Source: a virus (lineage: Duplodnaviria; Heunggongvirae; Uroviricota; Caudoviricetes). From it: a stretch of 38,421 nt of DNA. The stretch lies in IMG/VR virus record IMGVR_UViG_2703718837_000008, positions 1 through 38,421 of that record. The stretch is one strand, 5' to 3'. The notes below the pieces were generated by a model. The model saw only the letters and a program-made list of their open reading frames with translations. It did no database searches and was not told the DNA's origin. Shown here in pieces: positions 2,142-20,475 of this stretch. Both the position numbers and the translations under genes were made by a program. The stretch's first letter is position 1; every line of letters starts with the position of its first letter.

Positions 2142-4613
2142 TTAAAAATCAGCCTGACTCGGGATCAGTTTTTGCCAGATAGCTGAAACGTATTTTGCCT
2201 GGTAACGAGCGTCATCAAGTGCATTATGGCGCTCACCTTCGAATGGGATAGCAGTTCTGGCATCGAAGTCTATGGCTTTCCCCAGCTCAACGATTGTGCG
2301 TACATCGCGATCGTTGTAGTAACGCCACGGGCAGGGGATCCCCTGCCGTTCGTATGAACGGCGCAAAATCGTGTTGTCGAAGTTGGCTCCATTTCCCCAG
2401 ACCTGAACAAAAAACTCACCGGAGTTTTCGTCGATAAATTCCCGCAATTGCAGTAGTGCATCATCTAACGGGATTTCATCGGTCATAATGGCAGACTGCG
2501 CTTCACGTGATTGCTTTAGCCACCATTTAATGACGTCACGATCAATGACTCCGCCAGCAGTATCCAGATCGATGGTCTTGCTAAATTCCGGTCCCATATC
2601 TCCGGTTTGTGGATCGAAAAATATTGCGCCTATTGAGATAATCGGGGCATCGGGATTTTTTCCCATGGTTTCAAGGTCGATCATCAGATGAATCCCCGCT
2701 CTGCTGGTGGATGTTAGATTATGACGACCGTTCGCCTTAATTAAGGGATCTGACGCCTCGCCAGTTTCGCTATCGCTGGCATGATGCTGATTGCCGCCAG
2801 TGTTCTCCTTGTGCTGATGTGCAGTACCTTCCATTTCCTCCGGATCATTTTCCTGAACTTCAGGCTGATTCTCTTCATCGAATATTTCCTGGTATGTTGC
2901 GTCACCCATCACCGCACCACAATCAGGGCAACTACCGCCGCCGCTCTGACCGCAGGCGGTGCAGGCTTTTTCCGGCTCCTGTTGCGCTACTGGTTCAACC
3001 TGTTTCGTTTCTGGCTCGTTTTGTTGCGCATTTGGGCTGTTTTGTTCCGTTTTCTGGTCGTTCTGTTCCGATTCTTGCTGGTTCTGGTTTACAGAATCGC
3101 GGGTTTCAATCCCCTTCACCCATTTCGGATCATTCGGGTCGCTAATCCCTGCAACAAATTCTCCGCGAGAGGCAGCAAGCAACTTATCGGCGTCAGGCTG
3201 GCTGATATTGGCTGCCTGCATAATTTTGTTTACTTCGTCAGCGGTAACTTTTACCGGCTCTGGTTGTGCGATCGTGTCAGATGCACCAGTATTTTGTTGT
3301 GAACCTGAGTATGTGCCGTTTTTGCGGGCAAAATATTCTTCTTTCGTGATTTCAGTAGCCCCTGCAGCCAGCGCCTTATTCAGACCAGAAAGTTTGTTTG
3401 CACGACCATATTTTTCGCCATCCTTATCGGTGAAAAGGAAGTAGAACGGCCCCTCACGCTCTACAGATGGTTCAGTTTCCAGCGTGCTTTCATTTTTTTG
3501 AGTATCAGATACTTCAGTTTCCACTGCATCAGTTTGTGCTGCTGACGGCTGGAGAATATCAGCAGTGTTCTGGTCTGTTTCTTCATCCTCAAATACGCCC
3601 TTTGTCGCCAGGTATTCAGTGATGTATTTGTTCAGTGCTACGGGATCTTTGTGAATGTCGATCGGACGCTCACGGACAAGGCCAAAAATAGTCTGGCGGT
3701 CGTAGCGAAGGGCATCAGGCTGTTTGCGCATTGATGCCGAGATACGCTTCCAGTCTTCGCGGTCGTTGTCGATAACTTCATTTTTTGCCCAGCGATGGAT
3801 GCTGCCGTCAATGTTTCCGGTATCCACATCACCAGGCCAGAGAGCGTAGGCCAGTTCGTCATCCAGTGTTTTCCATGTCTGCTTGTATTCGCGATGAATG
3901 GCAGCAATGACCTGGCTGATTTTTCCTGTTGAATTTTCAGCGTGCTGTTGATTGGCTCTGGCGCGGGCGAGATCAACAACAGACGTGTATTTTCCGGTTT
4001 CCTTGCGTTCACCTTCGCGACGTTTTTTCCAGATGCGCATCTCTGCCTGAATTTCGGGCCATTTGGCACCAGGCTTACATTTATGCTTAACCCACCCGAT
4101 GGCATGCAGCTTAAGCTCCGGATACATGGCGTTAACTTCTGGCATTTTCATCAACGCTTCAACGATATGTCCGTCGAATGTTGCCATGTCTTCCTGCAAC
4201 AGTTCCTGCGCGCTAATCACCATATCAACGGTGATGTTTTCACATGTGTCGAACTTAACCATGACAGCGTTCTGTACTTCAGGGGCCAGCTTGTCAAAAG
4301 TGACGTTCATCGGATCTGATTCAGTCTCAACCGGGACAAAGGAAGCAGACTCCTCATCCCAGCGGTTTTCCTGCATATATTCAGCATCCCAGGAATCGAG
4401 GGCAGGGCGGGGTATACCGGGTTTATCCTCGCAGACAAGAAATTTATAAGCGCAGTCCTGAGCAGCCGGATATTGCTCCAGGAATTGCCAGGTAAATTTG
4501 GCACGGGCGCGGCGTTCGTCACCGGCTTCAATGGCAGTGGCTACAGCAACTGCACCTTCTTCCTTTATTGCCTGTTCGTCCGGAATGGCGGCGCAAATAA
4601 AGACTTTACTCAT
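2142..4613 (-). CDS. Exodeoxyribonuclease VIII-like protein with C-terminal DEDDh (DnaQ-like) 3'-5' exonuclease domain
   Basis: 823 aa. Central acidic/Gln-rich linker and a segment (KLLAASRGEFVAGISDPNDPKWVKG) that I recall from RecE-like prophage proteins. The C-terminal ~180 aa carries DnaQ-like motifs (MIDLETMG ... H.A..DA). No recT-like partner seen. Confidence 0.6.
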   Translation of the reverse strand: MSKVFICAAIPDEQAIKEEGAVAVATAIEAGDERRARAKFTWQFLEQYPAAQDCAYKFLVCEDKPGIPRPALDSWDAEYMQENRWDEESASFVPVETESDPMNVTFDKLAPEVQNAVMVKFDTCENITVDMVISAQELLQEDMATFDGHIVEALMKMPEVNAMYPELKLHAIGWVKHKCKPGAKWPEIQAEMRIWKKRREGERKETGKYTSVVDLARARANQQHAENSTGKISQVIAAIHREYKQTWKTLDDELAYALWPGDVDTGNIDGSIHRWAKNEVIDNDREDWKRISASMRKQPDALRYDRQTIFGLVRERPIDIHKDPVALNKYITEYLATKGVFEDEETDQNTADILQPSAAQTDAVETEVSDTQKNESTLETEPSVEREGPFYFLFTDKDGEKYGRANKLSGLNKALAAGATEITKEEYFARKNGTYSGSQQNTGASDTIAQPEPVKVTADEVNKIMQAANISQPDADKLLAASRGEFVAGISDPNDPKWVKGIETRDSVNQNQQESEQNDQKTEQNSPNAQQNEPETKQVEPVAQQEPEKACTACGQSGGGSCPDCGAVMGDATYQEIFDEENQPEVQENDPEEMEGTAHQHKENTGGNQHHASDSETGEASDPLIKANGRHNLTSTSRAGIHLMIDLETMGKNPDAPIISIGAIFFDPQTGDMGPEFSKTIDLDTAGGVIDRDVIKWWLKQSREAQSAIMTDEIPLDDALLQLREFIDENSGEFFVQVWGNGANFDNTILRRSYERQGIPCPWRYYNDRDVRTIVELGKAIDFDARTAIPFEGERHNALDDARYQAKYVSAIWQKLIPSQADF

Positions 4614-5250: not shown

Positions 5251-5308
5251 AAAAAGGGCGGCAGAGCAGTCGCGGAGTAAAACTGATACCGCCAAACGCC
5301 ACCAGAAA
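5251..5308 (-). ncRNA. dicF: DicF small RNA (ftsZ-targeting sRNA)
   Basis: Minus-strand sequence TTTCTGGTGGCGTTTGGCGGTATCAGTTTTACTCCGCGACTGCTCTGCCGCCCTTTTT matches the K-12 DicF sequence as I recall it (1-2 substitutions), ending in a T-run. Lies ~170 nt upstream of dicB, as in Qin. Ends are approximate. Confidence 0.75.
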
Positions 5309-7530: not shown

Positions 7531-7812
7531 ATGGAAGAATTAAGAATATTTCTCAATTCTCTTTCGTCAGATGAACAGCGTATGTTTGCATGTGAGTGTG
7601 GTACTAGCATCGGTTATCTAAGAAAGGCATTGAGTAAAGGTCAAATGTTAGGGGCATCGTTATGTGTCCTTATTGAGCGAGCCAGTAATGGTGAAGTTAC
7701 ACGTCAGCAACTAAGGCCTTTTGATTGGATGAAGATTTGGCCCGAGCTGGAAGATACCAAAACGTTAACACAACCACTTACTAGGAGCTTGATTCATGAA
7801 AATCAAGCATGA
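7531..7812 (+). CDS. Cro/YdaS-like HTH regulator
   Basis: 93 aa. AGGAG RBS. Motif IERASNGEVTRQQLRPFDWMKIWPEL is typical of YdaS/Cro-like prophage regulators. Divergent from the repressor. Confidence 0.65.
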   Translation: MEELRIFLNSLSSDEQRMFACECGTSIGYLRKALSKGQMLGASLCVLIERASNGEVTRQQLRPFDWMKIWPELEDTKTLTQPLTRSLIHENQA

Positions 7813-8221
7813 ACACATCCGCATGGCGATGAATGCCTGGGCGCGTCCTGATGGCGAAAAAGTTCCAGCAGCTGGAATAACCCAGGCTTATTTTGAGTTG
7901 GGTATGACGTTTCCTGAACTGTATGACGACAGCCATCCGGAAGCCCTGGCTCGCAATACCCAGAAAATTTTCCGCTGGATAGAGAAAGACACCCCTGATG
8001 CAGTTGAAAAAATTCAGGCGTTGTTACCAGCGATCGAAAAGGCAATGCCACCTTTGCTGGTGGCCAGAATGCGCAGCCACAGTTCAGCTTATTTTCGGGA
8101 GCTGGTGGAGACGCGGGAGCGATTGGTGAGAGACGCTGATGATTTTGTCGCAGTGGCAATCGCCGGTTTCAATCAGATGAACCGTGGTGGCCCGGCAGGA
8201 AATGCTGTGGCAGTACATTGA
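7796..8221 (+). CDS. YdaT-like (CII-like) protein
   Basis: 141 aa starting MKIKHEHI, which I recall as the YdaT N-terminus of Rac-type prophages. Immediately follows the YdaS-like gene with a short overlap. Confidence 0.5.
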   Translation: MKIKHEHIRMAMNAWARPDGEKVPAAGITQAYFELGMTFPELYDDSHPEALARNTQKIFRWIEKDTPDAVEKIQALLPAIEKAMPPLLVARMRSHSSAYFRELVETRERLVRDADDFVAVAIAGFNQMNRGGPAGNAVAVH

Positions 8222-9363: not shown

Positions 9364-9732
9364 GTGTTGATTTCTGGTCATGAGGTAATTTTCAGGAGGA
9401 CTTGTGGCAAAAGTTTTACACAAGAAGAGCGAGAAAAAATTAAAGGGCAGGTTGTTGAACTCGTACGCCAGAGTGGGCGTGAGACGTTACGGCAACTGGA
9501 AGTCAAGACAGGTGCGACAAGATATCTGATGAGCGTTCTCGCAAGAGAGCTGGTTGTCAGCGGCGATGTATACAACTCTGGTTACGGGTTATTCCCGTCT
9601 GAACAGGCTCGTAAAGACTGGCAAAACGCCCGCAAAAAATTATCGAGGGCAAAGCTGAAGAAACCGGTTGTGGTTGATCCGGACCTTATCTGGTCATTAC
9701 CTGACGGAGAAATCCGTCGCCTTAGTCTTTGA
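9364..9732 (+). CDS. Hypothetical protein (possibly replication-associated)
   Basis: 122-aa ORF from GTG 9364, directly after the replication gene stop. No recognised motif. An alternative short frame with a strong AGGAGG RBS (GTG ~9404) exists, so the reading frame is uncertain. Confidence 0.35.
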   Translation: MLISGHEVIFRRTCGKSFTQEEREKIKGQVVELVRQSGRETLRQLEVKTGATRYLMSVLARELVVSGDVYNSGYGLFPSEQARKDWQNARKKLSRAKLKKPVVVDPDLIWSLPDGEIRRLSL

Positions 9733-9833: not shown

Positions 9834-12092
9834 ATGAAACCAGAATACTTAAGAAAAATAGAATCATTGCAACGTGAGGTTGATGATTTCCATCCAGTGC
9901 TAAGAGCGCTTCTACCACGTTTGCCGACTGTTACACATGTTGAATATAAGCAAGGACCATCAGAAAAAGGTGCTGATTTTGTCATAATTAAACGAGATGA
10001 GGCATTAGACGAGGAAATATATATTGGTGTTATTTGTAAAGTTGGAAAGATAATTCAGTCAAATAGTGAGGTTGAACGACAAATAGAAGAGTGTCAATTA
10101 TATCCACGCTTTATTTCTTCTGGCTCTAAGAACATACATTTGAATGAAATTTGGGTTATTACTAATTCATCGATCTCAAATAATGCTCAAGAAAAAATTT
10201 ACTTGAAATTCAAATCTACAAATATAAAATTTATAGAGGGTGAAAAAATATGTTCTTTAATCAGTAAATATTACCCAGAGTTTTGGGATTTCGAATCCAT
10301 TAATTATGAACAATACTTAACAGATACATTGCAAACCATAAGTGATACACCTGAAAGTTCTTTTTTTGGTAGTGTTGGCATAAATAACCTTATTGATAGA
10401 TATGTAAGCAAGGAGGATCATAAAAAACGCAGACACAGGCCGTTAAAACTGTATAGTGTTGTGAGAGCCGAGAGATTTATTTTTTTAGAGGGAACCGTTG
10501 GCTCTGGGAAAAGTACTTTGCTGAAACAGTTAATTAGAAAAATAAAAGAAGAATATTCTTACGAAAAAGACTACATCCTTCCAGTATTTTGTCAATACAA
10601 GGATGTTCTAGAAAAAAAACTTAATGTTGAAAATATAATACAAAGTGTGTTAAGTAAGTACAAAATACAACATGATGGGAATATTTTATTAATTGTTGAT
10701 TCGGTTGATGAAGTAAAGGAATCACTTGAGGAAAGGCAAAACAACTTCAGGGACATTGTAGAGAAAGTATCCAGGAATGATAAAGTTCGATTACTAGTTG
10801 CTTCAAGAATTATGGATTCTCTTCAGGACTATGAAGTTATCGATCAGATGTTTGCAAGATACTCGATAATACCACTTAGCACAGGTCAAATAATCGACTT
10901 TGTAGATAAAATCTGCAATGACATTAAAATAACAAATAAACTTAAAAATGGTATAGAAAAAACACCACTATTTAAGTTCATTCCCAGGACTCCAGTGAGC
11001 GCTATTCTTCTGGCAAGAATACTCTCTGATGAGATTAAAGAATTACCATCTACAATGACAGAACTATACTCAAAATACAGTGAGATAGTATTGGGACGAT
11101 GGGATACATCTAAGGGATTATTATCGCAAACAGAATATGATGTAATAAGTAATATATTAGTAGAAATTGCGATGTTTATGATGGATAACTCTCTAAACTG
11201 CATATCAATTTCAGAAGTGCAGGACATGTTTTTAAATTATTTGGCCAAAAGAAACTTGAATGTTGATGAGGACAAACTTTTCAAAAGACTAATTTATCGC
11301 AGTGAAGTAACAACAGTTAATGTTAGAAGTAATACGTTCTCATTTCTACACAGATCATTCATGGAGTATTTTTACGCTGAAGGACTTAGGAAGCGTGGCC
11401 TAATAGACATAAATGATAATATTTATGATATTTATTGGGCAAATAGTTATTTCTTCTATTTTGGTTTGTTACGAGACAATGAATATCTTATTGATAAAAT
11501 TAATGAACTTAAACCTAGTAACGATAAAACAAGATTTTTAAGGTTGTTTTATAACGGTTCTTTTTATTTGGCTTCATATCTAACTCCGTATAAAAAAATA
11601 ACGAGGGGAGTCCTTTTATCATATATAGATGCAGGTAAATTATATGTTGATATTCTCAAGGGAAATACCGACATCCCGCTGAAGGAATTTTCACCAGTAG
11701 CTCTTCTTTGTATTTTCACAAAGTGTTTAAGTAACAATTACGCATATGATTTTTTCAAATCTGCCTTGGAAGACTTGTCAGTTCAAATTGAACAATATGA
11801 GGAAATTGGTGAACATATTGATTATGCACGTTTCTTCATAGCATCAACACTGAATGAGCTCGGGGATAAATCCGCATTTGATAGCTTAGTGGAAAAAAAT
11901 AAATTAGGTGTTTTGATTAATTTAGGGATAACTCACGTTACAGACGACTCAGGACTACTTAGCACTACGGTTGATAAGTACCTGAAAAAATTCAATAAAA
12001 AAGTACGAAGTAACCATGATATGTCTAATTATATATCTAAGTTATATGAGGAATCTACAGGTTCCTTACGTACAAACCTGCAAATTCAATAA
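9834..12092 (+). CDS. NACHT-type STAND NTPase with N-terminal PD-(D/E)xK-like nuclease domain (bacterial NLR-like antiphage candidate)
   Basis: 752 aa. Walker A FLEGTVGSGKST (aa ~217-228). Walker B with NACHT signature ILLIVDSVDE (aa ~285-293). NACHT winged-helix motif SFLHRSFMEYFYAEG (aa ~502-516). N-terminal GADFVIIK...EIYIGVICK resembles an Mrr-like D...E.K nuclease core. Strongly AT-rich relative to the flanking phage genes, with its own promoter and a 13-bp stem hairpin after the stop. Confidence 0.7.
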   Translation: MKPEYLRKIESLQREVDDFHPVLRALLPRLPTVTHVEYKQGPSEKGADFVIIKRDEALDEEIYIGVICKVGKIIQSNSEVERQIEECQLYPRFISSGSKNIHLNEIWVITNSSISNNAQEKIYLKFKSTNIKFIEGEKICSLISKYYPEFWDFESINYEQYLTDTLQTISDTPESSFFGSVGINNLIDRYVSKEDHKKRRHRPLKLYSVVRAERFIFLEGTVGSGKSTLLKQLIRKIKEEYSYEKDYILPVFCQYKDVLEKKLNVENIIQSVLSKYKIQHDGNILLIVDSVDEVKESLEERQNNFRDIVEKVSRNDKVRLLVASRIMDSLQDYEVIDQMFARYSIIPLSTGQIIDFVDKICNDIKITNKLKNGIEKTPLFKFIPRTPVSAILLARILSDEIKELPSTMTELYSKYSEIVLGRWDTSKGLLSQTEYDVISNILVEIAMFMMDNSLNCISISEVQDMFLNYLAKRNLNVDEDKLFKRLIYRSEVTTVNVRSNTFSFLHRSFMEYFYAEGLRKRGLIDINDNIYDIYWANSYFFYFGLLRDNEYLIDKINELKPSNDKTRFLRLFYNGSFYLASYLTPYKKITRGVLLSYIDAGKLYVDILKGNTDIPLKEFSPVALLCIFTKCLSNNYAYDFFKSALEDLSVQIEQYEEIGEHIDYARFFIASTLNELGDKSAFDSLVEKNKLGVLINLGITHVTDDSGLLSTTVDKYLKKFNKKVRSNHDMSNYISKLYEESTGSLRTNLQIQ

Positions 12093-12103
12093 TAAATAGA
12101 TTG

Positions 12104-12138
12104 TCACATTGAAGGTAACGTATCGACCTTCAATGTGA
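12104..12138 (+). terminator. Perfect 13-bp inverted repeat hairpin after the NACHT gene
   Basis: TCACATTGAAGGT-(9 nt)-ACCTTCAATGTGA. No strong T-run follows, so it may be a terminator or a protein-binding palindrome. Confidence 0.4.
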
Positions 12139-12460
12139 TGATTATCCTCTTGATAATATAGCTTAAGCTACTTTCGACTTTCTGAGACACAGAGATTGCA
12201 GAATGTATCAATCATAGTGAAGCTATCGTAAATGTTCGCACGTCGCTCAAATCAGATAGTCATATTTGAGTGAACTGCTTACTCAAAATGCTGGTTGGGG
12301 CCTGACTTAATACATCTGAAGAAGTGTTGGTTATGTTTGGCTGTTGTGTTCCATTGCCAAAGAAAAAATAGATAAACTATACCCAATAGTTGTATTGAAT
12401 CACTGACGAGACAGCCTCATATTTATCAGAACTGGTGTACGTCCAATACAGGAGGTTGTC

Positions 12461-12550
12461 GTGCTGGTTCTCAAATGTGCGCTGGCTATTGCAGCTGTAA
12501 TGGCAATTTATTGTCTTGCTGTTGTTCTTATGGATCGCCTTTCTGATTGA
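12461..12550 (+). CDS. Candidate 29-aa hydrophobic peptide (possible small membrane toxin)
   Basis: Perfect AGGAGG RBS 6 nt upstream of GTG. Product VLVLKCALAIAAVMAIYCLAVVLMDRLSD is a single predicted transmembrane helix. Not in the ORF track (below cutoff). Confidence 0.3.
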   Translation: MLVLKCALAIAAVMAIYCLAVVLMDRLSD

Positions 12551-12704
12551 TTTTATATTGGCGAGGTGACGTGAGTTAAGTAGAATTGCTGCGGGTGCTT
12601 GAGGCTATCTGCCTCAGGCATGAACACCAAAGGCAGATAGAGAAAAGCCCCAGTTAACATTACGCGTCCTGCAAGACGCTTAACATTAATCTGAGGCTCA
12701 ATCT

Positions 12705-12917
12705 ATGAACGGCAAATCTAGGTTAGCCTCTTACGTGCCGAAAGGCAAGGAGAAGCAGGCTATGAAGCAGCAAAAGGCGATGTTAATCGCCCTGATCGTC
12801 ATCTGTTTAACCGTCATAGTGACGGCACTGGTAACGAGGAAAGACCTCTGCGAGGTACGAATCCGAACCGGCCAGACGGAGGTCGCTGTCTTCACAGCTT
12901 ACGAACCTGAGGAGTAA
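12705..12917 (+). CDS. mok-like overlapping reading frame (translational coupling frame for hok)
   Basis: 70-aa ORF in the same frame that contains the entire hok ORF, as in hok/mok loci. Confidence 0.4.
   Translation: MNGKSRLASYVPKGKEKQAMKQQKAMLIALIVICLTVIVTALVTRKDLCEVRIRTGQTEVAVFTAYEPEE
12762..12917 (+). CDS. hok: Hok/Gef family type I toxin
   Basis: 51-aa product MKQQKAMLIALIVICLTVIVTALVTRKDLCEVRIRTGQTEVAVFTAYEPEE matches the HokD/RelF sequence as I recall it. Followed by fbi-like 3' complementarity and a terminator. Confidence 0.85.
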   Translation: MKQQKAMLIALIVICLTVIVTALVTRKDLCEVRIRTGQTEVAVFTAYEPEE

Positions 12918-12987
12918 GAGACCAGGCGAGGGAGAAATCCCTCGCCACCTCTGATGAGTCAGGCATCCTCAACGCACCCGCACTTAA

Positions 12988-13012
12988 CCCGCTTCGGCGG
13001 GTTTTGTTTTTT
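12988..13012 (+). terminator. Rho-independent terminator at the 3' end of the hok mRNA
   Basis: CCCGC-TTCG-GCGGG hairpin followed by TTTTGTTTTTT. Confidence 0.7.
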
Positions 13013-13084
13013 CCTGGCATTCTGGTTTACAATTCGCACGTCAGCCTGAACACCTGACACCTGCTGCGCCAGCAGAGAAAACAG

Positions 13085-13357
13085 ATGGCGCACAAAACCA
13101 AATTTCACAATTCTGATACCGACCTTGCCATCAGGCATGGGCGGCGTTCACTCGCATTTAAAACCGACTGGTACCAACACCCACCATGTACTGAAGAACA
13201 GGCCGAATGGCTAATTCATAACTACCGCAGACGCGGATACGAGATTAAGAAAGCCCTCAGCCTCGATTATCGTCACTGGATAATCTATGTCAGGCTCCCT
13301 TATTCCGAACGCCCACCGCGCCCATCCCGCACATACCAGCAACGGATCTGGAGGTAA
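13085..13357 (+). CDS. Hypothetical protein, Rem-like by position
   Basis: 90 aa. Sits between hok and the DUF968 gene, the same position as rem in the Qin order hokD-rem-ydfU-quuQ. No motif recognised. Confidence 0.4.
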   Translation: MAHKTKFHNSDTDLAIRHGRRSLAFKTDWYQHPPCTEEQAEWLIHNYRRRGYEIKKALSLDYRHWIIYVRLPYSERPPRPSRTYQQRIWR

Positions 13358-13358
13358 C

Positions 13359-14414
13359 GTGCGGATATTACTTCGACCTGTTCTGGTACCGGAACTCGGG
13401 CTGGTGGTCCTTAGGCCGGGCCGTGAATCCATGCAAGTATTTCATAACCCTCGAGTGCTGGTGGAGCCTGAACCGAAAAGCATGCGTAATCTGCCGTCCG
13501 GGGTCGTTCCTGCCGTTCGCCAGCCGTTGGTGGAAGACAAAACATTGCTGCCGTTTTTCAGTAACGCACGGGTGATTCGTGCTGCTGGTGGTGCTGGTGC
13601 ATTGTCTGACTGGCTGTTGCGCCATATTAAATCCTGCCAGTGGCCACACGGCGATTATCATCACAGCGAAACTGTCATTCACCGTTATGGTACCGGCGCA
13701 ATGGTGTTGTGCTGGCACTGCGACAACCAGCTGCGTGACCAGACATCCGAATCACTCGAGCAACTTGCTCATCAAAACCTGTCAGCATGGATGATTGACG
13801 TCATCGGTCACGCAATAAGCGGTACGCAGGAGCGTGAATTATCTTTGGCTGAATTATCCTGGTGGGCGGTCCGCAATCAGGTGGCGGACGCGCTACCGGA
13901 AGCGGTATTACGTCGTTCGCTGGGGTTGCGTGCGGAAAAAATCCGCTCAATGTACCGTGAAAGCGACATCGTACCGGGAGAGCAGACCGCCACCAGCATA
14001 CTGAAGCAGCGCACAAAAAATCTTGCGCCGCTGCCTCACGCCCACCAGCAAAACCCGCCACAGGAAAAGACGGTGGTCAGCATTGCCGTTGATCCGGAGT
14101 CACCGGCTCAGTATCTCCAGCGCCAGAAACCACAACGGGAAGAGATGCCTGTATACACGCGTTGGGTAAAAACGCAGAAATGCATGACGTGCGGTAATCA
14201 GGCAGATGATCCGCATCACATCATTGGTCATGGACTGGGAGGGATGGGAACAAAGGCTGATGATTTGTTTGTTATTCCGCTGTGCCGTAAATGTCATAAC
14301 GAACTGCACGCCGGGGTAAAAGATTTTGAAGAAAAACACGGCAGCCAGCTGTTGTTGCTGATTCGTTTTTTAATGCACGCGAGAAATTCGGGTGTCCTGA
14401 AGTGGAAAGCATGA
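13359..14414 (+). CDS. DUF968 / YdfU-like protein with C-terminal HNH-type zinc-finger nuclease motif
   Basis: 351 aa from GTG 13359 (GGAGG RBS; the ORF track extends further upstream). C-terminal CMTCG...HHIIGHGLGGMGTKADDLFVIPLCRKCHNELH is an HNH-like motif. Confidence 0.6.
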   Translation: MRILLRPVLVPELGLVVLRPGRESMQVFHNPRVLVEPEPKSMRNLPSGVVPAVRQPLVEDKTLLPFFSNARVIRAAGGAGALSDWLLRHIKSCQWPHGDYHHSETVIHRYGTGAMVLCWHCDNQLRDQTSESLEQLAHQNLSAWMIDVIGHAISGTQERELSLAELSWWAVRNQVADALPEAVLRRSLGLRAEKIRSMYRESDIVPGEQTATSILKQRTKNLAPLPHAHQQNPPQEKTVVSIAVDPESPAQYLQRQKPQREEMPVYTRWVKTQKCMTCGNQADDPHHIIGHGLGGMGTKADDLFVIPLCRKCHNELHAGVKDFEEKHGSQLLLLIRFLMHARNSGVLKWKA

Positions 14415-14780
14415 ATGACTGAACGCATAGAATTTGTTTTGCCTTACCCGCCGACGGTGAATACTTACTGGCGGCGTCGTGGCAGCACATATTTTGTATC
14501 AAAAGTCGGTGAGCGTTATCGCCGTGATGTGGCGCTAATTGTTCGCCAGCAGCGGCTGAAATTAAATCTGTCCGGAAGGCTGGCGATAAAGATTATTGCA
14601 GAGCCACCGGATAAACGCCGCCGCGACCTGGACAATATCCTGAAGGCACCACTGGATGCGCTGACGCATGCCGGACTACTCATAGACGACGAGCAGTTTG
14701 ATGAAATCAATATAGTGCGCGGTCAGCTCGTTCCTGGTGGGCGGCTGGGGATAAAAATCACAGAACTGGAGTGCGCATGA
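14415..14780 (+). CDS. rusA: Holliday junction resolvase RusA
   Basis: 121 aa. Motifs YPPTVNTYWRRRG and PDKRRRDLDNILKAPLDAL resemble the RusA catalytic core (DRRRRDLDN in K-12 RusA). Confidence 0.85.
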   Translation: MTERIEFVLPYPPTVNTYWRRRGSTYFVSKVGERYRRDVALIVRQQRLKLNLSGRLAIKIIAEPPDKRRRDLDNILKAPLDALTHAGLLIDDEQFDEINIVRGQLVPGGRLGIKITELECA

Positions 14781-15466
14781 ATAACCAGTATTTACAGTTT
14801 GTGCGTGAGCAGCTCATTATCGCCACCGCTGATTTGAGTGGGGCAACAAAAGGTCAGCTTGAAGCCTGGCAAGAGAATGCCATATTCGATACAGGGCGTT
14901 ACAGGCGAAAAAAAATCCGGTACCGCGATGAAGTGACTGGAAAAATGATAACACGGGATAATCCACCGATCCCGGGGAAGCAATCGCTGGCGAAGGGGAC
15001 GTCAATTCCTCTGGTTAGTCCGGTTGAGTTTTCGACATCATCGTGGCGGCGGGCTGTTCTGTCTCTTGAAGAACATCATAAAGCCTGGTTGTTGTGGAGT
15101 TACAGCGGGAGTATTTGTTGGGAATATCAGATCGCGATAACACACTGGGCGTGGAATGAATTTAATACTCAATCCGGTACCAGAAAAATTGCAGGGAAAA
15201 CGCAGGAACGCCTGAAAAAATTAATCTGGCTAGCGGCGCAGGCAGTAAAAGCAGAACTTTTTGGTGGGGAAGGTTATGAATACCAGGAGCTGGCATTACT
15301 GGCAGGAGTGACAACTAAAAACTGGTCCAAAACATTTACTCGTCACTGGGTTGCAATGAAACACATTTTTCACCGACTGGATAGTGAGGCTTTATTGTTT
15401 GTAATGAGAATACGTTCAAAACAAAAGACGGCATTTTCAAAGCAAAGTGTTGCAAAAGTAGATTGA
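14777..15466 (+). CDS. Putative late-gene antiterminator (Q-like, QuuQ-type)
   Basis: ~229 aa from ATG 14777 (ATGA overlap with the rusA stop; GGAG RBS). Assigned mainly by position: last gene before the late promoter/terminator pair, tRNAs and lysis cassette. Confidence 0.45.
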   Translation: MNNQYLQFVREQLIIATADLSGATKGQLEAWQENAIFDTGRYRRKKIRYRDEVTGKMITRDNPPIPGKQSLAKGTSIPLVSPVEFSTSSWRRAVLSLEEHHKAWLLWSYSGSICWEYQIAITHWAWNEFNTQSGTRKIAGKTQERLKKLIWLAAQAVKAELFGGEGYEYQELALLAGVTTKNWSKTFTRHWVAMKHIFHRLDSEALLFVMRIRSKQKTAFSKQSVAKVD

Positions 15467-15677: not shown

Positions 15678-15753
15678 GGCCCTTTAGCTCAGTGGTGAGA
15701 GCGAGCGACTCATAATCGCCAGGTCGCTGGTTCAAATCCAGCAAGGGCCACCA
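15678..15753 (+). tRNA. tRNA with CAU anticodon, probably tRNA-Ile2 (lysidine type; Met not excluded)
   Basis: 76 nt, manually folded. Acceptor GGCCCTT/AAGGGCC, D-stem GCTC/GAGC, anticodon loop CTCATAA, T-loop TTCAAAT, 3' CCA encoded. Resembles E. coli ileX as I recall it. Confidence 0.8.
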
Positions 15754-15754
15754 A

Positions 15755-15831
15755 CCGCCACTAGCTCATCAGGAAAGAGCGTCAACCCTTTAAGTTGAGT
15801 GTGCGAGGTTCGAGTCCCCGGTGGCGGTCCA
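15755..15831 (+). tRNA. Atypical tRNA-like gene, anticodon UUU by loop position (Lys-like) with C33
   Basis: 77 nt, manually folded. Acceptor CCGCCAC/GTGGCGG, D-stem GCTC/GAGC, perfect anticodon stem TCAAC/GTTGA, loop CCTTTAA, T-loop TTCGAGT with one T-stem mismatch, CCA encoded. C at position 33 and C1 are unusual. Confidence 0.5.
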
Positions 15832-15833
15832 GT

Positions 15834-15909
<76 letters not shown>

Positions 15910-15912
15910 TAT

Positions 15913-15987
<75 letters not shown>

Positions 15988-16518: not shown

Positions 16519-16734
16519 ATGAAATCCATGGACAAAATCTCAACTGGCATTGCCTACGGCACCTCCGCAGGCAGTGCTGGCTACTGGTTTTTACAGTGGC
16601 TCGATCAGGTCAGTCCGTCACAGTGGGCTGCAATTGGTGTGCTGGGAAGTCTAGTTCTGGGCTTTTTGACTTATTTGACGAATGTGTACTTCAAAATCAG
16701 AGAAGACAGACGAAAGGCTGCGAGAGGTGAATAA
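16519..16734 (+). CDS. Class II holin / pinholin (phage 21 S-like) with dual-start motif
   Basis: 71 aa starting [23 protein letters not shown]..., matching S21 (antiholin from Met1, holin from Met4) as I recall it. GGAGG RBS. Two predicted TM segments. Confidence 0.85.
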
Positions 16735-17231
16735 TGCCTCTATCATTACGAAAAGCCGTTGCTGCTGCTATTGGTGGCGGAGCAATTGCTATAGCATCAG
16801 CGTTAATCACTGGCCCAAGTGGTAACGATGGTCTGGAAGGTGTCAGCTACATACCATACAAAGATATTGTTGGTGTATGGACTGTATGTCACGGACACAC
16901 CGGAAAAGACATCATGCTCGGTAAAACGTATACCGAAGCAGAATGCAAAGCCCTCCTGAATAAAGACCTTGCCACGGTCGCCAGACAAATTAACCCGTAC
17001 ATCAAAGTCGATATACCGGAAACAACGCGCGGCGCTCTTTACTCATTCGTTTACAACGTGGGGGCTGGCAATTTCAGAACATCGACGCTTCTTCGCAAAA
17101 TCAACCAGGGCGATATCAAAGGCGCATGTGATCAGCTACGTCGCTGGACATATGCTGGCGGTAAGCAATGGAAAGGGCTGATGACTCGCCGTGAGATTGA
17201 GCGTGAAGTCTGTATATGGGGGCAGCAATGA
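16734..17231 (+). CDS. SAR endolysin (lysozyme with N-terminal signal-anchor-release domain)
   Basis: 165 aa. Gly/Ala-rich weakly hydrophobic N-terminus ([20 protein letters not shown]) followed by a lysozyme-like catalytic region. TAATG overlap with the holin stop. Confidence 0.8.
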
Positions 17232-18235: not shown

Positions 18236-18718
18236 ATGTCTGGACCCCCGAAAAACCCGCCACGCCTGCATTTGATACGAGGCAACCCCTCAAAGCGCCC
18301 CGTTAAAGACCTCAAAAAAACCGCTAAAAAGGATGAAAAAGGTCTCCCTAAAATTCCGCAACATTTAGGGGCACAGGGGAAGTACTGGTTCAGGCGAATG
18401 GCGGAAGAGTTGAATGCGGAAGGGATCATTTCTCAGCTCGATGCACGTGCGCTCGAGTTACTGGTGGAAGCCTACACCGAATACCGGCATCACTGCGAAA
18501 TACTCGATGTTGAGGGTTATACCTACCGCACGGAAACGCAGAATGGCGATGTGCTGATCAAGGCACACCCGGCTGCTGCGATGAAGGCTGATGCCTGGAA
18601 GCGGATCCGGGCGATGCTTGCAGAGTTTGGTATGTCACCGGCAAGCCGGGCGAAAGTAAATACCGCCGGACCGGATGATGTTGATCCGCTGGCAGAGCTT
18701 TTAAAAGCGAGAGACTGA
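18236..18718 (+). CDS. Terminase small subunit (P27-like family)
   Basis: 160 aa. Position and basic N-terminus consistent with P27-family TerS. Stop overlaps the TerL start. Confidence 0.7.
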   Translation: MSGPPKNPPRLHLIRGNPSKRPVKDLKKTAKKDEKGLPKIPQHLGAQGKYWFRRMAEELNAEGIISQLDARALELLVEAYTEYRHHCEILDVEGYTYRTETQNGDVLIKAHPAAAMKADAWKRIRAMLAEFGMSPASRAKVNTAGPDDVDPLAELLKARD

Positions 18719-20475
18719 TGGCAAAAGTGGCTGACGGGATCCGCTACGCCGAACGCGTTGTTGCAGGAGAAATTGTTGCTGGCGAATTTGTCCGTCTGGC
18801 CTGCCAGCGTTTTCTTGATGACCTGAAGTACGGCGAAGAGCGGGGGATTTATTTCAGTGAACCCCGTGCACAGCACATCCTGAATTTCTACAAATTTGTA
18901 CCCCATGTGAAAGGGGCGCTGGCAGGTCAGCCCATTGAGTTGATGGACTGGCATGTATTTATCCTCATTAATATTTTTGGTTTTGTTATTCCGCTGGTCA
19001 ATGAAGAGACCGGGGAAGTTGTCATGCGCAGCGATGGCAGCGGACGTCCGGTGATGGTGCGCCGGTTCCGGACGGCGTACAACGAAGTCGCCCGTAAAAA
19101 CGCAAAATCAACTCTGTCATCGGGTATCGGCCTGTATATGACGGGGGCAGATGGTGAAGGCGGAGCTGAGGTGTATTCAGCCGCAACCACGCGTGACCAG
19201 GCAAGAATCGTGTTTGAAGACGCCAAAAATATGGTCAGAAAAGCCCGGTCGACACTCGGGCGGTTGTTTGATTTCAACAAGCTGGCGATTTACCAGGAGC
19301 AGAGCGCATCAAAATTTGAACCGCTTTCTTCGGATGCAAACAACCTGGATGGTCTGAACATCCACTGCGCCATTATTGATGAGCTGCATGCACATAAAAC
19401 CCGTGACGTGTGGGACGTTCTGGAAACGGCAACCGGTGCCCGTCTGCAGTCCCTTTTATTTGGTATCACCACGGCAGGGTTTAACAAGGAAGGGATTTGT
19501 TACGAGCAGCGTGATTACGCCATCAAGGTATTGCGTGGCTATAACAGCGACGTGGAGGGCGCGGTAAAAGACGACTCCTACTTTGCGATTATTTACACCC
19601 TCGATGAGGGAGATGATCCGTTTGATGAAACGGTCTGGCAGAAAGCGAATCCCGGCCTGGGCATCTGTAAACGCTGGGATGATCTGCGTCGCCTGGCGAA
19701 AAAAGCGAAAGAACAGGTCTCTGCGCGGGTGAATTTTTTTACCAAACACATGAATGTGTGGGTAACAGCAGAGTCTGCCTGGATGGACATGATTAAGTGG
19801 GAGAAGTGCGAATACATTGCCCCACGACATGAGCTGAAAACGTATCCCATGTGGGTCGGCGTTGACCTTGCTCATAAGATTGATATCTGTGCGGCGGCAA
19901 AACTCTGGCGAACGGATAACGGGCATGTTCATGCCGATTTTAAATTCTGGCTTCCGGAAGGACGGCTGGAACGATGCTCGCGGCAGCAGGCAGAACTTTA
20001 CCGGAAGTGGGCGGAGATGGATAAGCTGATTCTGACGGATGGTGATGTTATCGATCATGCTCAGATAAAAAGTGACTTACTGGAATGGATTGGTGGTGAA
20101 AACCTCAGGGAACTGGGATTTGACCCGTGGAGCGCGATGCAGTTCAGCCTGGCACTGGCTGAAGAAGGGATACCGCTGGTGGAGGTTCCGCAGACGGTTC
20201 GCAATCTGTCAGAGGCCATGAAGGAAACGGAATCACTGGTCTATGCCGGGCGTTTCCATCACAGCAATCATCCGGTCATGAACTGGATGATGTCTAACGT
20301 TACGGTAAAACCGGACAAAAACGACAATATCTTCCCGAATAAATCCACGCTGGAAGCCAAAATCGACGGCCCTGTTGCGATGTTTACAGCAATGAGCCGG
20401 ATGCTGGTCAATGGTGGTGAACCGGAGCCGGATCTGTCTGAACATCTGGTCAGCGTGGGCATCCGCTCGCTTTAA
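18718..20475 (+). CDS. Terminase large subunit
   Basis: 585 aa. ATPase region followed by nuclease region; typical size and position between TerS and portal. Confidence 0.85.

Follow-up and report, generated by a model that had tools for sequence, protein, structure and literature searches.

The DNA considered here, IMG/VR record IMGVR_UViG_2703718837_000008 (Caudoviricetes), is a lambdoid (Rac/Qin-like) prophage of 38,421 nucleotides (nt), and this whole stretch is called the window below. It contains a gene for a Hok toxin of 51 amino acids (aa), preceded by a hydrophobic open reading frame (ORF) of 29 aa. These very probably represent two independent units placed side by side: a complete hokD-type hok/mok/sok type I locus (12558-13013) and a separate small gene (~12395-12550). 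The first of them is already known biology, named and annotated in close relatives, whose hok genes are labelled hokD by the PGAP annotation pipeline. The second is well supported by sequence comparison as a real, conserved and separate gene, which goes further than had been claimed by an earlier description made from the letters of the DNA (the sequence-only reading). The coordinates of both units and of the surrounding prophage genes are collected in Table 1.

Table 1. Features of the two units and of the prophage around them, with positions in the window
Feature	Position	Strand	Basis or remark
hok promoter: -35 TTGGCG (12558-12563), 17-nt spacer, -10 TAGAAT (12581-12586)	12558-12586	+	promoter scan
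Full-length hok mRNA, ~420 nt	12593-13013	+	5' end placed by homology, within ~2 nt
tac (translational activator element), 5' fold-back arm	12593-12604	+	predicted folds
ucb, anti-Shine-Dalgarno (SD) element of mok (AAGCCCCA)	12645-12652	+	predicted folds
mok SD, GAGG	12693-12696	+	fold and direct coordinate check
Hypervariable segment: mok codons 1-6, target of the Sok 5' tail	12701-12724	+	46 unique hokD-type loci
mok, 70-codon frame, in-frame N-terminal extension of hok	12705-12917	+	ORF list
dcb (AGCCTC)	12725-12730	+	pairs with hok SD zone in full-length fold, with mok SD in truncated fold
hok toxin gene, 51 aa; SD GGAGA (12749-12753)	12762-12917	+	ORF list, Pfam, PHROGs
fbi (fold-back inhibitory element), 3' fold-back arm	12967-12979	+	predicted folds
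Intrinsic terminator: AACCCGC-TTCG-GCGGGTT, then TTGTTTTTTC	12986-13013	+	terminator scan; stem 12986-13003, 7 pairs, 5 G-C
sok promoter: -35 TTGCCT (12748-12743), 17-nt spacer, -10 TAACCT (12725-12720)	12720-12748	-	sokW homology
Predicted Sok-like antisense RNA, ~70 nt	~12713 to ~12642	-	start predicted 7 nt beyond the -10
Candidate sigma-70 promoter of the 29-aa ORF: -35 TTGAAT (12395-12400), 17-nt spacer, -10 CATATT (12418-12423)	12395-12423	+	inferred
SD of the 29-aa ORF, AGGAGG, 5 nt before GTG	12450-12455	+	direct coordinate check
Gene for 29-aa hydrophobic single-helix peptide (MLVLKCALAIAAVMAIYCLAVVLMDRLSD)	12461-12550	+	ORF list; GTG start
Integrase	724-1842	-
Exonuclease-like gene	2142-4613	-
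DicF small RNA, immunity-side region	5256-5307	-	73.5 bits
YdaT	7796-8221
DUF977	9364-9732
NACHT NTPase	9834-12092
29-aa ORF unit and hok/sok unit	~12395-13013
90-aa ORF, PHROG 1212	13085-13357		follows hok
DUF968	13287-14414
RusA	14415-14780
Q	14771-15466
Four tRNAs	15678-15984	+	just past the Q antiterminator gene
Lysozyme	16734-17231
Large terminase	18718-20475

The hok/mok/sok locus

The sequence-only reading had proposed a 51-aa Hok toxin nested in a longer mok-like frame starting at 12705, and both frames stand. The Hok product matches Pfam PF01848 (HOK_GEF; E=1.2e-23, 82.9 bits, cut-off 22) and PHROG 251 ('MokW-like host killing'; E=2.8e-33), and mok runs into it in frame. Phage HannyBb has a coding sequence of 213 nt, equal in length to mok, that bears the annotation 'MokW-like host killing protein', and the SD motif of the window mok is the same as that of mok in the hok locus of plasmid R1 (PMC9841398). 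The window Hok is identical to E. coli K-12 HokD at 51/51 residues, and the protein is unchanged in 46 of 63 related loci. Toxicity is attributed to it by identity only, through HokD, the known toxic control of a preprint that deals with Hok diversity (10.1101/2025.08.07.668861), together with its likeness to HokW, the toxin of the hokW-sokW locus of prophage Sp5.

Two side observations concern the hok coding sequence. In E. coli M8 (L001), the closest full-length relative, which carries the same NACHT cargo gene, the hok start codon is ATA instead of ATG (at ~4663), and its hokD is nevertheless annotated by PGAP. The Tyr47 codon of the window Hok, the sole tyrosine codon nearby, is TAC followed by G (12900-12903), a TACG context that presumably resembles the tRNA-Arg target of TadA. 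The hokD mRNA, like that of hokB, is reportedly A-to-I edited by TadA, which leads to cysteine at codon 46 in the numbering of the preprint (10.1101/2025.08.07.668861).

A search with the Rfam models for hok/sok, a check proposed in the sequence-only reading, returned RF01794 ('sok') at 12593-12767 on the plus strand, over the full model length and with 111.7 bits (gathering score 59), and position 1 of the model aligns to 12593. The possibility that this match is the antisense RNA itself was rejected, since an R1-type plasmid and a Stx2-phage (Sp5-type) locus used as controls, the latter containing every primer site of Takada et al. (2021), are also matched on the hok strand; the model thus marks the hok leader, and Sok is a partial complement of it. 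In a three-way alignment, the hok -10 and start region of the window align with those of Sp5 hokW and R1-type hok.

The hok mRNA folds with a minimum free energy (MFE) of -173.6 kcal/mol (z=-8.3 against shuffles). In both the MFE and the centroid structures (12593-13005), GGGUGCUUGAGG (12593-12604) pairs with CCUCAA-C-GCACCC (12967-12979) through 12 pairs and one bulge. Between the end zones of the transcript there are 12 perfect 6-mer complements (1.6 in shuffles), of which 6 fall within the 12590-12604 / 12967-12982 closure. In the full-length fold, ucb pairs with the mok SD zone (12692-12698), while in a 3'-truncated fold (12593-12966) tac re-pairs with ucb (12645-12651), the mok SD shifts to dcb and the hok SD is left unpaired. 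This predicted refolding matches the passage from full-length to truncated mRNA modelled for R1 hok (PMC9841398).

The fold-back had previously been assigned to GAGGTG (~12563) and CACCTC (~12946), and this assignment failed: the two hexamers are present (12563-12568 and 12946-12951) and were unpaired with each other in the full-length, truncated and 5'-extended folds, even with the 5' end forced to 12563. GAGGTG lies within the spacer of the hok promoter, that is, upstream of the mRNA start, and CACCTC pairs locally with 12918-12925; judging from the predicted folds, both arms had been placed ~30 nt too far upstream. The strong terminator described at 12988-13012 was recovered, with its stem at 12986-13003 and a T-rich tail reaching 13013, and the hairpin that follows the hok stop codon carries compensated changes with respect to Sp5. 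As a side observation, the 3' untranslated region of hok (12926-13007, comprising the hairpin, fbi and the terminator) gives a sub-threshold match to Rfam isrK (27.8 bits, gathering score 50), an Hfq-binding RNA from the Gifsy-1 prophage of Salmonella (Rfam); the match may reflect an origin of isrK from the 3' end of a hok gene, or chance alone.

An antisense Sok-like RNA had been expected opposite 12640-12720, its promoter being left unplaced. This promoter is now located on the minus strand, and its sequence is identical to that of the sokW promoter inactivated by Takada et al. (2021). Their oligonucleotide YO-597 matches the minus strand of the window at 30/30 positions (12721-12750), and their primer YO-421, compared with the wild-type Sp5-type sequence, places its substitutions on the hexamer homologous to 12725-12720 (TAACCT to GAGCCG); the YO-421 construct was described as promoter-less, with sokW transcription repressed (PMC8621323). 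The -35 and -10 hexamers of sok are kept in 55 related loci. The predicted RNA would consist of a short 5' tail complementary to the mok start, a long terminator-like stem-loop and then GGGGCUUUUCU (fold of -33.3 kcal/mol), and it is the homologous complement of the region probed for sokW with oligonucleotide YO-592. The sokW-identical promoter, together with the predicted stem-loop and U-rich tail, supports the expectation of an antisense gene.

The target of the Sok 5' tail is the variable part of the locus. Diversity in the two 12-nt bins of the hypervariable segment is 0.31 and 0.13, compared with 0.01-0.06 over the rest of the leader and the hok coding sequence. At least six versions of this segment exist among the loci, one of them without the mok ATG. 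On sequence grounds, this variation looks like a diversification of antisense specificity among co-resident hok/sok copies.

The 29-aa reading frame and its surroundings

The AGGAGG-driven, single-helix ORF noticed in the sequence-only reading is confirmed. Its hydrophobic stretch of ~19 residues runs from L2 to M24, interrupted only by K5, and is followed by a DRLSD tail. Relatives were sought by DNA similarity (BLAST), tblastn, a degenerate DNA pattern and exact-sequence look-up, which provided 11 loci by BLAST, more than 120 by the pattern from IMG/VR, 4 from species-representative genomes and 3 further BLAST alleles; the final set comprises 137 loci and 24 nucleotide alleles, 2 of them frameshifted. 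Start, stop and length are invariant in 135/137 loci (11/11 of those found by BLAST). Upstream of the frame, CAGGAGGT (the SD of the ORF) is retained in 116/136 loci, with variants that are mostly still purine-rich, and in the candidate promoter CATATT is found in 133 and TTGAnn in 115 of the 136. Unrelated upstream flanks converge just before CATATT, or just before the SD in BL21(DE3).

Across codons 2-15, 16 synonymous and 8 non-synonymous distinct changes were counted (expected synonymous fraction 0.29, p=1.2e-4), distributed over codon positions 1/2/3 as 8/1/15. All the replacements are conservative (A/T/V, V/I/L, M/V/I, D/E), and the start codon varies only from GTG to ATG. When the six frames were compared, the synonymous excess was strongest in the frame of the ORF; the second was the antisense frame that shares its third positions, which contains a stop codon across the full ORF span. 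The sequence-only reading had named a lack of conservation, along with a lack of translation, as what would speak against the ORF; the intact frame and its synonymous bias show that it is conserved. One lineage in IMG/VR (L072/L105) carries a 2-nt deletion in the ORF together with AGAAAG in place of AGGAGG and TGTATT in place of CATATT; judged by these changes, promoter-like box, SD and frame have decayed jointly there.

The ORF does not depend on its neighbour. Twenty loci share the right flank with hok deleted and only a leader remnant left, and in this hok-less clade the ORF has accumulated 9 synonymous and 4 non-synonymous changes (p=0.002). These substitution patterns indicate that the ORF is kept by purifying selection with or without an adjoining hok. 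The segment containing it is found in 2510/5426 complete E. coli genomes (1769 at >=80% coverage), and the ORF is carried by four isolated lambdoid phages, BL21(DE3), ATCC 25922 and S. flexneri M90T. An intact copy that is 79% identical and begins with ATG is present on the Shigella virulence plasmid pINV and the plasmids of enteroinvasive E. coli, ~290 bp before icsP. Behind it come a hok promoter (TTGGCG...TAGAAT), decayed yet recognisable, and ~50 nt from the beginning of the leader, suggesting that the icsP upstream region is partly a remnant of a phage hok locus; in plasmid pWR100 of S. flexneri M90T (L011) the copy region is 2400-2700, with icsP beginning at 2881. Copies remain intact even at the greatest divergence (78-80% DNA identity). 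A taxonomic search beyond Escherichia/Shigella yielded only one gut metagenome bin, which is likely contamination.

PGAP has annotated the ORF once (WP_000960667.1) and mostly skips it, and database entries for the peptide read 'hypothetical', 'uncharacterised' or 'membrane protein'. The peptide has no match in Pfam, PHROGs, NCBIfam or PADLOC, and no publication with its sequence was found in a literature search by peptide fragments and accession. A relationship to YnfS, also of 29 aa and coded near Q in the K-12 Qin prophage (L139, 1123-1212), was rejected, the two sequences being unrelated. A terminator-like site inside the ORF (12485-12504, 3 G-C pairs) was put down to chance, two such sites being found where one was expected. 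Very widespread, usually skipped by annotation pipelines, and present both in lambdoid phages that are viable and on the virulence plasmid of Shigella, the gene represents a modest, cheap and testable lead for small-protein biology.

Both units sit in the early-right region of the prophage, between a cargo slot and the DUF968-RusA-Q genes. The gene to the left of 12319 varies among relatives (NACHT, DUF4145, QueH, TPR, DUF4209 and others), so that the 29-aa ORF and hok make up the invariable right-hand edge of a hotspot for cargo genes. In the window, the cargo gene codes for a 752-aa protein with NACHT and NCH1 domains (a STAND NTPase) and a weak N-terminal match to an Mrr-like nuclease (Pfam); PADLOC gave no good match for this protein, which is likely to be anti-phage cargo. 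At 12105-12137, 13 nt past the NACHT stop codon, lies a perfect inverted repeat (CACATTGAAGGT...ACCTTCAATGTG; arms of 12 bp, loop of 9 nt), and no T-run follows it. On the other side of hok, the 90-aa PHROG 1212 ORF overlaps the longest DUF968/HNH-like frame by 71 nt; relatives have rem or other small genes at this place.

Proposed mechanism and alternative readings

All the sequence elements of the R1-type circuit are intact in the window and the predicted alternative structures are present. The transcription, processing, toxicity in the host and biological role of the locus are read across from its R1 and hokW-sokW homologues, and by this analogy it would work as follows. The hok mRNA would start at ~12593; tac/fbi pairing would close its ends and ucb would mask the mok ribosome-binding site, leaving the full-length mRNA inert. 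Slow trimming of the 3' end would remove fbi, whereupon tac would switch to ucb and mok, and then hok, would become translatable. The minus-strand promoter at 12748-12720 would supply an antisense RNA, short and unstable, that binds the mok start and blocks translation, and the duplex would be degraded. If the antisense RNA were gone, for example upon prophage induction, as for hokW-sokW, Mok and then Hok would be made and the inner membrane damaged. In Sp5, HokW is toxic, the sokW RNA transcribed from its own promoter counteracts it and mutation of this promoter releases the toxicity; the system is active upon RecA-dependent prophage induction, contributing to lysis and to a ~two-fold phage release (Takada et al. 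2021; PMC8621323). The window locus occupies the same prophage position as that of Sp5, which makes the same induction-linked role plausible for it.

Several points weigh against the reading of two functional units side by side. The -10 of sok is a poor match to the consensus, and for this reason it went unreported by a generic promoter scan; the candidate promoter of the 29-aa ORF was likewise not reported because it matches the consensus at only 8/12 bases. Most of the loci with the 29-aa ORF were retrieved by a pattern that presupposes its C-terminal half, so that the substitution test had to be confined to the N-terminal codons 2-15 and reliance placed on the loci found by BLAST. Moreover, this test counts distinct changes against the consensus, ignoring kinship and the difference between transitions and transversions, and the relatives all belong to Escherichia/Shigella and are mostly more than 90% identical. 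Finally, chromosomal hok loci have been reported not to mediate post-segregational killing (10.1101/2025.08.07.668861), and an intact sequence is therefore no proof of activity.

This last point leads to the strongest of the alternatives, namely that the hok/sok locus is an intact but silent passenger that contributes neither to the induction nor to the maintenance of the prophage. Chromosomal hokA, hokB and hokC reportedly gave neither killing nor activation by rifampicin (summarised in 10.1101/2025.08.07.668861), and M8, the closest full-length relative, has lost the hok ATG. We nevertheless consider a silent passenger unlikely, because the regulatory elements are intact and conserved over dozens of phage loci, Hok itself is nearly invariant, hok is enriched in prophages, and the homologous hokW-sokW is active in lysis and phage release.

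As for the 29-aa peptide, our best guess is that it is a small inner-membrane protein made from the prophage, and not a hok leader, and that it is produced from its own weak promoter plus early-right read-through on induction. On a more ambitious proposal, the peptide would be a new membrane effector encoded by the prophage, serving as a second toxin, in lysis timing or exclusion, or as a modulator of Hok in the membrane; separately, 12701-12724 would be the mark of 'immunity groups' that prevent cross-talk among co-resident hok/sok copies. We regard this as quite unlikely; it would imply that selection has preserved the peptide next to icsP on the virulence plasmid of Shigella and in between a third and a half of E. 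coli genomes.

A more specific version is that the ORF codes for a second type I membrane toxin with an antisense or divergent RNA antitoxin that has so far escaped notice, giving two stacked toxin systems. TisB, Ldr and Fst-type peptides are small, single-helix type I toxins with a charged tail, and the size of the window peptide, its single hydrophobic helix and its charged C-terminal tail are typical of such toxins. The ORF also adjoins another toxin locus, and a minus-strand promoter-like site at 12579-12550 would give an RNA antisense to its 3' end. This site, however, is at chance level (2 found against 1.9 expected), its -10 (TAAAAT) has become TGAAAT or TGTAAT in most relatives, with loss of the key A2, and the terminator scan reported no G+C-rich terminator on the minus strand at the ORF. 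The mRNA of the ORF region is not unusually structured (fold of 12432-12592: z=-1.0, with 33/200 shuffles at least as stable), Rfam gave only chance-level matches over it, and the absence of matches in Pfam, PHROGs, NCBIfam and PADLOC also speaks against a toxin. In addition, the strong AGGAGG is largely unpaired in the MFE structure, and such an apparently unmasked site would be unusual in a toxin gene that needs silence. Overall, a second toxin is very unlikely.

There is, similarly, little probability that the ORF is untranslated and its frame incidental, what is conserved being the DNA or RNA itself (as part of the upstream hok promoter region, for example, or through recent common descent). 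The relatives are close (mostly 90-98% identical), a short ORF stays open at little cost, PGAP usually leaves it uncalled, and the antisense frame that shares its third positions is biased as well. Against an incidental frame stand the 8/1/15 distribution over codon positions, the synonymous excess being strongest in the ORF frame, the conservative nature of every replacement, the restriction of start codon changes to GTG to ATG, the SD kept even where the upstream sequence is unrelated, and the intact frame of the most diverged copies.

The other suggestion of the sequence-only reading, a leader peptide or upstream ORF that would tune hok transcription or translation (for example on early-operon read-through transcripts), is not supported and is extremely improbable: although the ORF stop codon comes just 7 nt before the hok -35, read-through would yield bicistronic transcripts for want of a terminator in between, and the hok start motif follows the ORF in 103 loci, with linkage in most, the ORF survives under selection in the 20 hok-deleted loci (9 synonymous/4 non-synonymous) and on pINV, where the hok leader has decayed, Sp5 hokW, K-12 hokD and many other hok loci are without it, the amino-acid sequence of leaders is usually not conserved in such a way, and terminator scan and folding found no terminator, attenuator or significant structure between 12550 and 12593.

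Comparison with known systems

TisB, Ldr, Ibs and ShoB are type I toxins, and KdpF and MgtS are small inner-membrane proteins. The 29-aa ORF is like all of them in its size of ~30 residues, its single predicted helix, its short charged tail and its strong ribosome-binding site, and it is unlike them in that it has no detectable sequence relationship to curated families and that no antisense partner was found for it.

The hok/sok locus of plasmid R1, the reference system from the Gerdes laboratory (reviewed in PMC9841398), has the same order of elements as the window and belongs to the same Rfam family. The blocks GCTTGAGGCT-TCTGCCTC, GGCAGA-AGA, AGCCCC, TAGCCTCTTAC and GCAAGGAGAAG-AGGC-ATGAA are common to both, the sok -35 and -10 lie at homologous positions, and the same tac/fbi closure and switch to tac/ucb are predicted. 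The two loci differ in their carrier, a plasmid in one case and a prophage in the other, and in the antisense-target stem-loop, which is 19 nt longer in the window; the tac/fbi pair is GGCGCUU/AAGCGCC in R1 and GGGUGC/GCACCC in the window, a compensated change. HokW, which is close to the window Hok, is 44% identical to R1 Hok (Takada et al.; PMC8621323), and hok genes in general are enriched in prophages (10.1101/2025.08.07.668861). Matches to part of the 12100-13080 region occur in 4781/5426 complete E. coli genomes; the number of places in one genome has a median of 2 and reaches 11.

The hokW-sokW locus of Sp5/Stx2 phages, also in a lambdoid prophage, shares ~93.5% DNA identity with the window over 12573-12989, including the leader, the tac/fbi arms, the layout of mok and hok and the sok promoter block, and its RF01794 score is similar (113.5 for the Sp5-type locus, 111.7 for the window). 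Hok differs from HokW at 4/51 residues, the C-terminus of the window toxin being of the HokD type, and mok codons 2-6, the target of the Sok 5' tail, read ATGAACGGCAAATCT in the window and ATGCTGAACACATGT in Sp5. In phages, homology to the hok module usually sets in at 12573, within the promoter spacer; upstream of this position the window and Sp5 are unrelated, so that the hok -35 is different, and Sp5 has no 29-aa ORF. At the other end, the window has a canonical terminator directly after fbi, where Sp5 diverges.

The K-12 Qin prophage contains hokD (relF), whose DNA is 98.1% identical to 12748-13011 of the window, fbi and terminator included. The downstream neighbours are of the same kind (DUF968/YdfU and Q), whereas on the other side K-12 hokD, unlike the window hok, follows relBE. 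The homology begins only at 12748, and K-12 is thus without the hok promoter, tac, ucb, the mok start and the sok -10. On this comparison, the window has the complete form of the hokD locus, presumably ancestral to the K-12 stump. The hok/sok part, otherwise nothing new, is therefore of interest as the intact form of a locus of which only a stump is left in E. coli K-12, with exact coordinates for every one of its regulatory elements.

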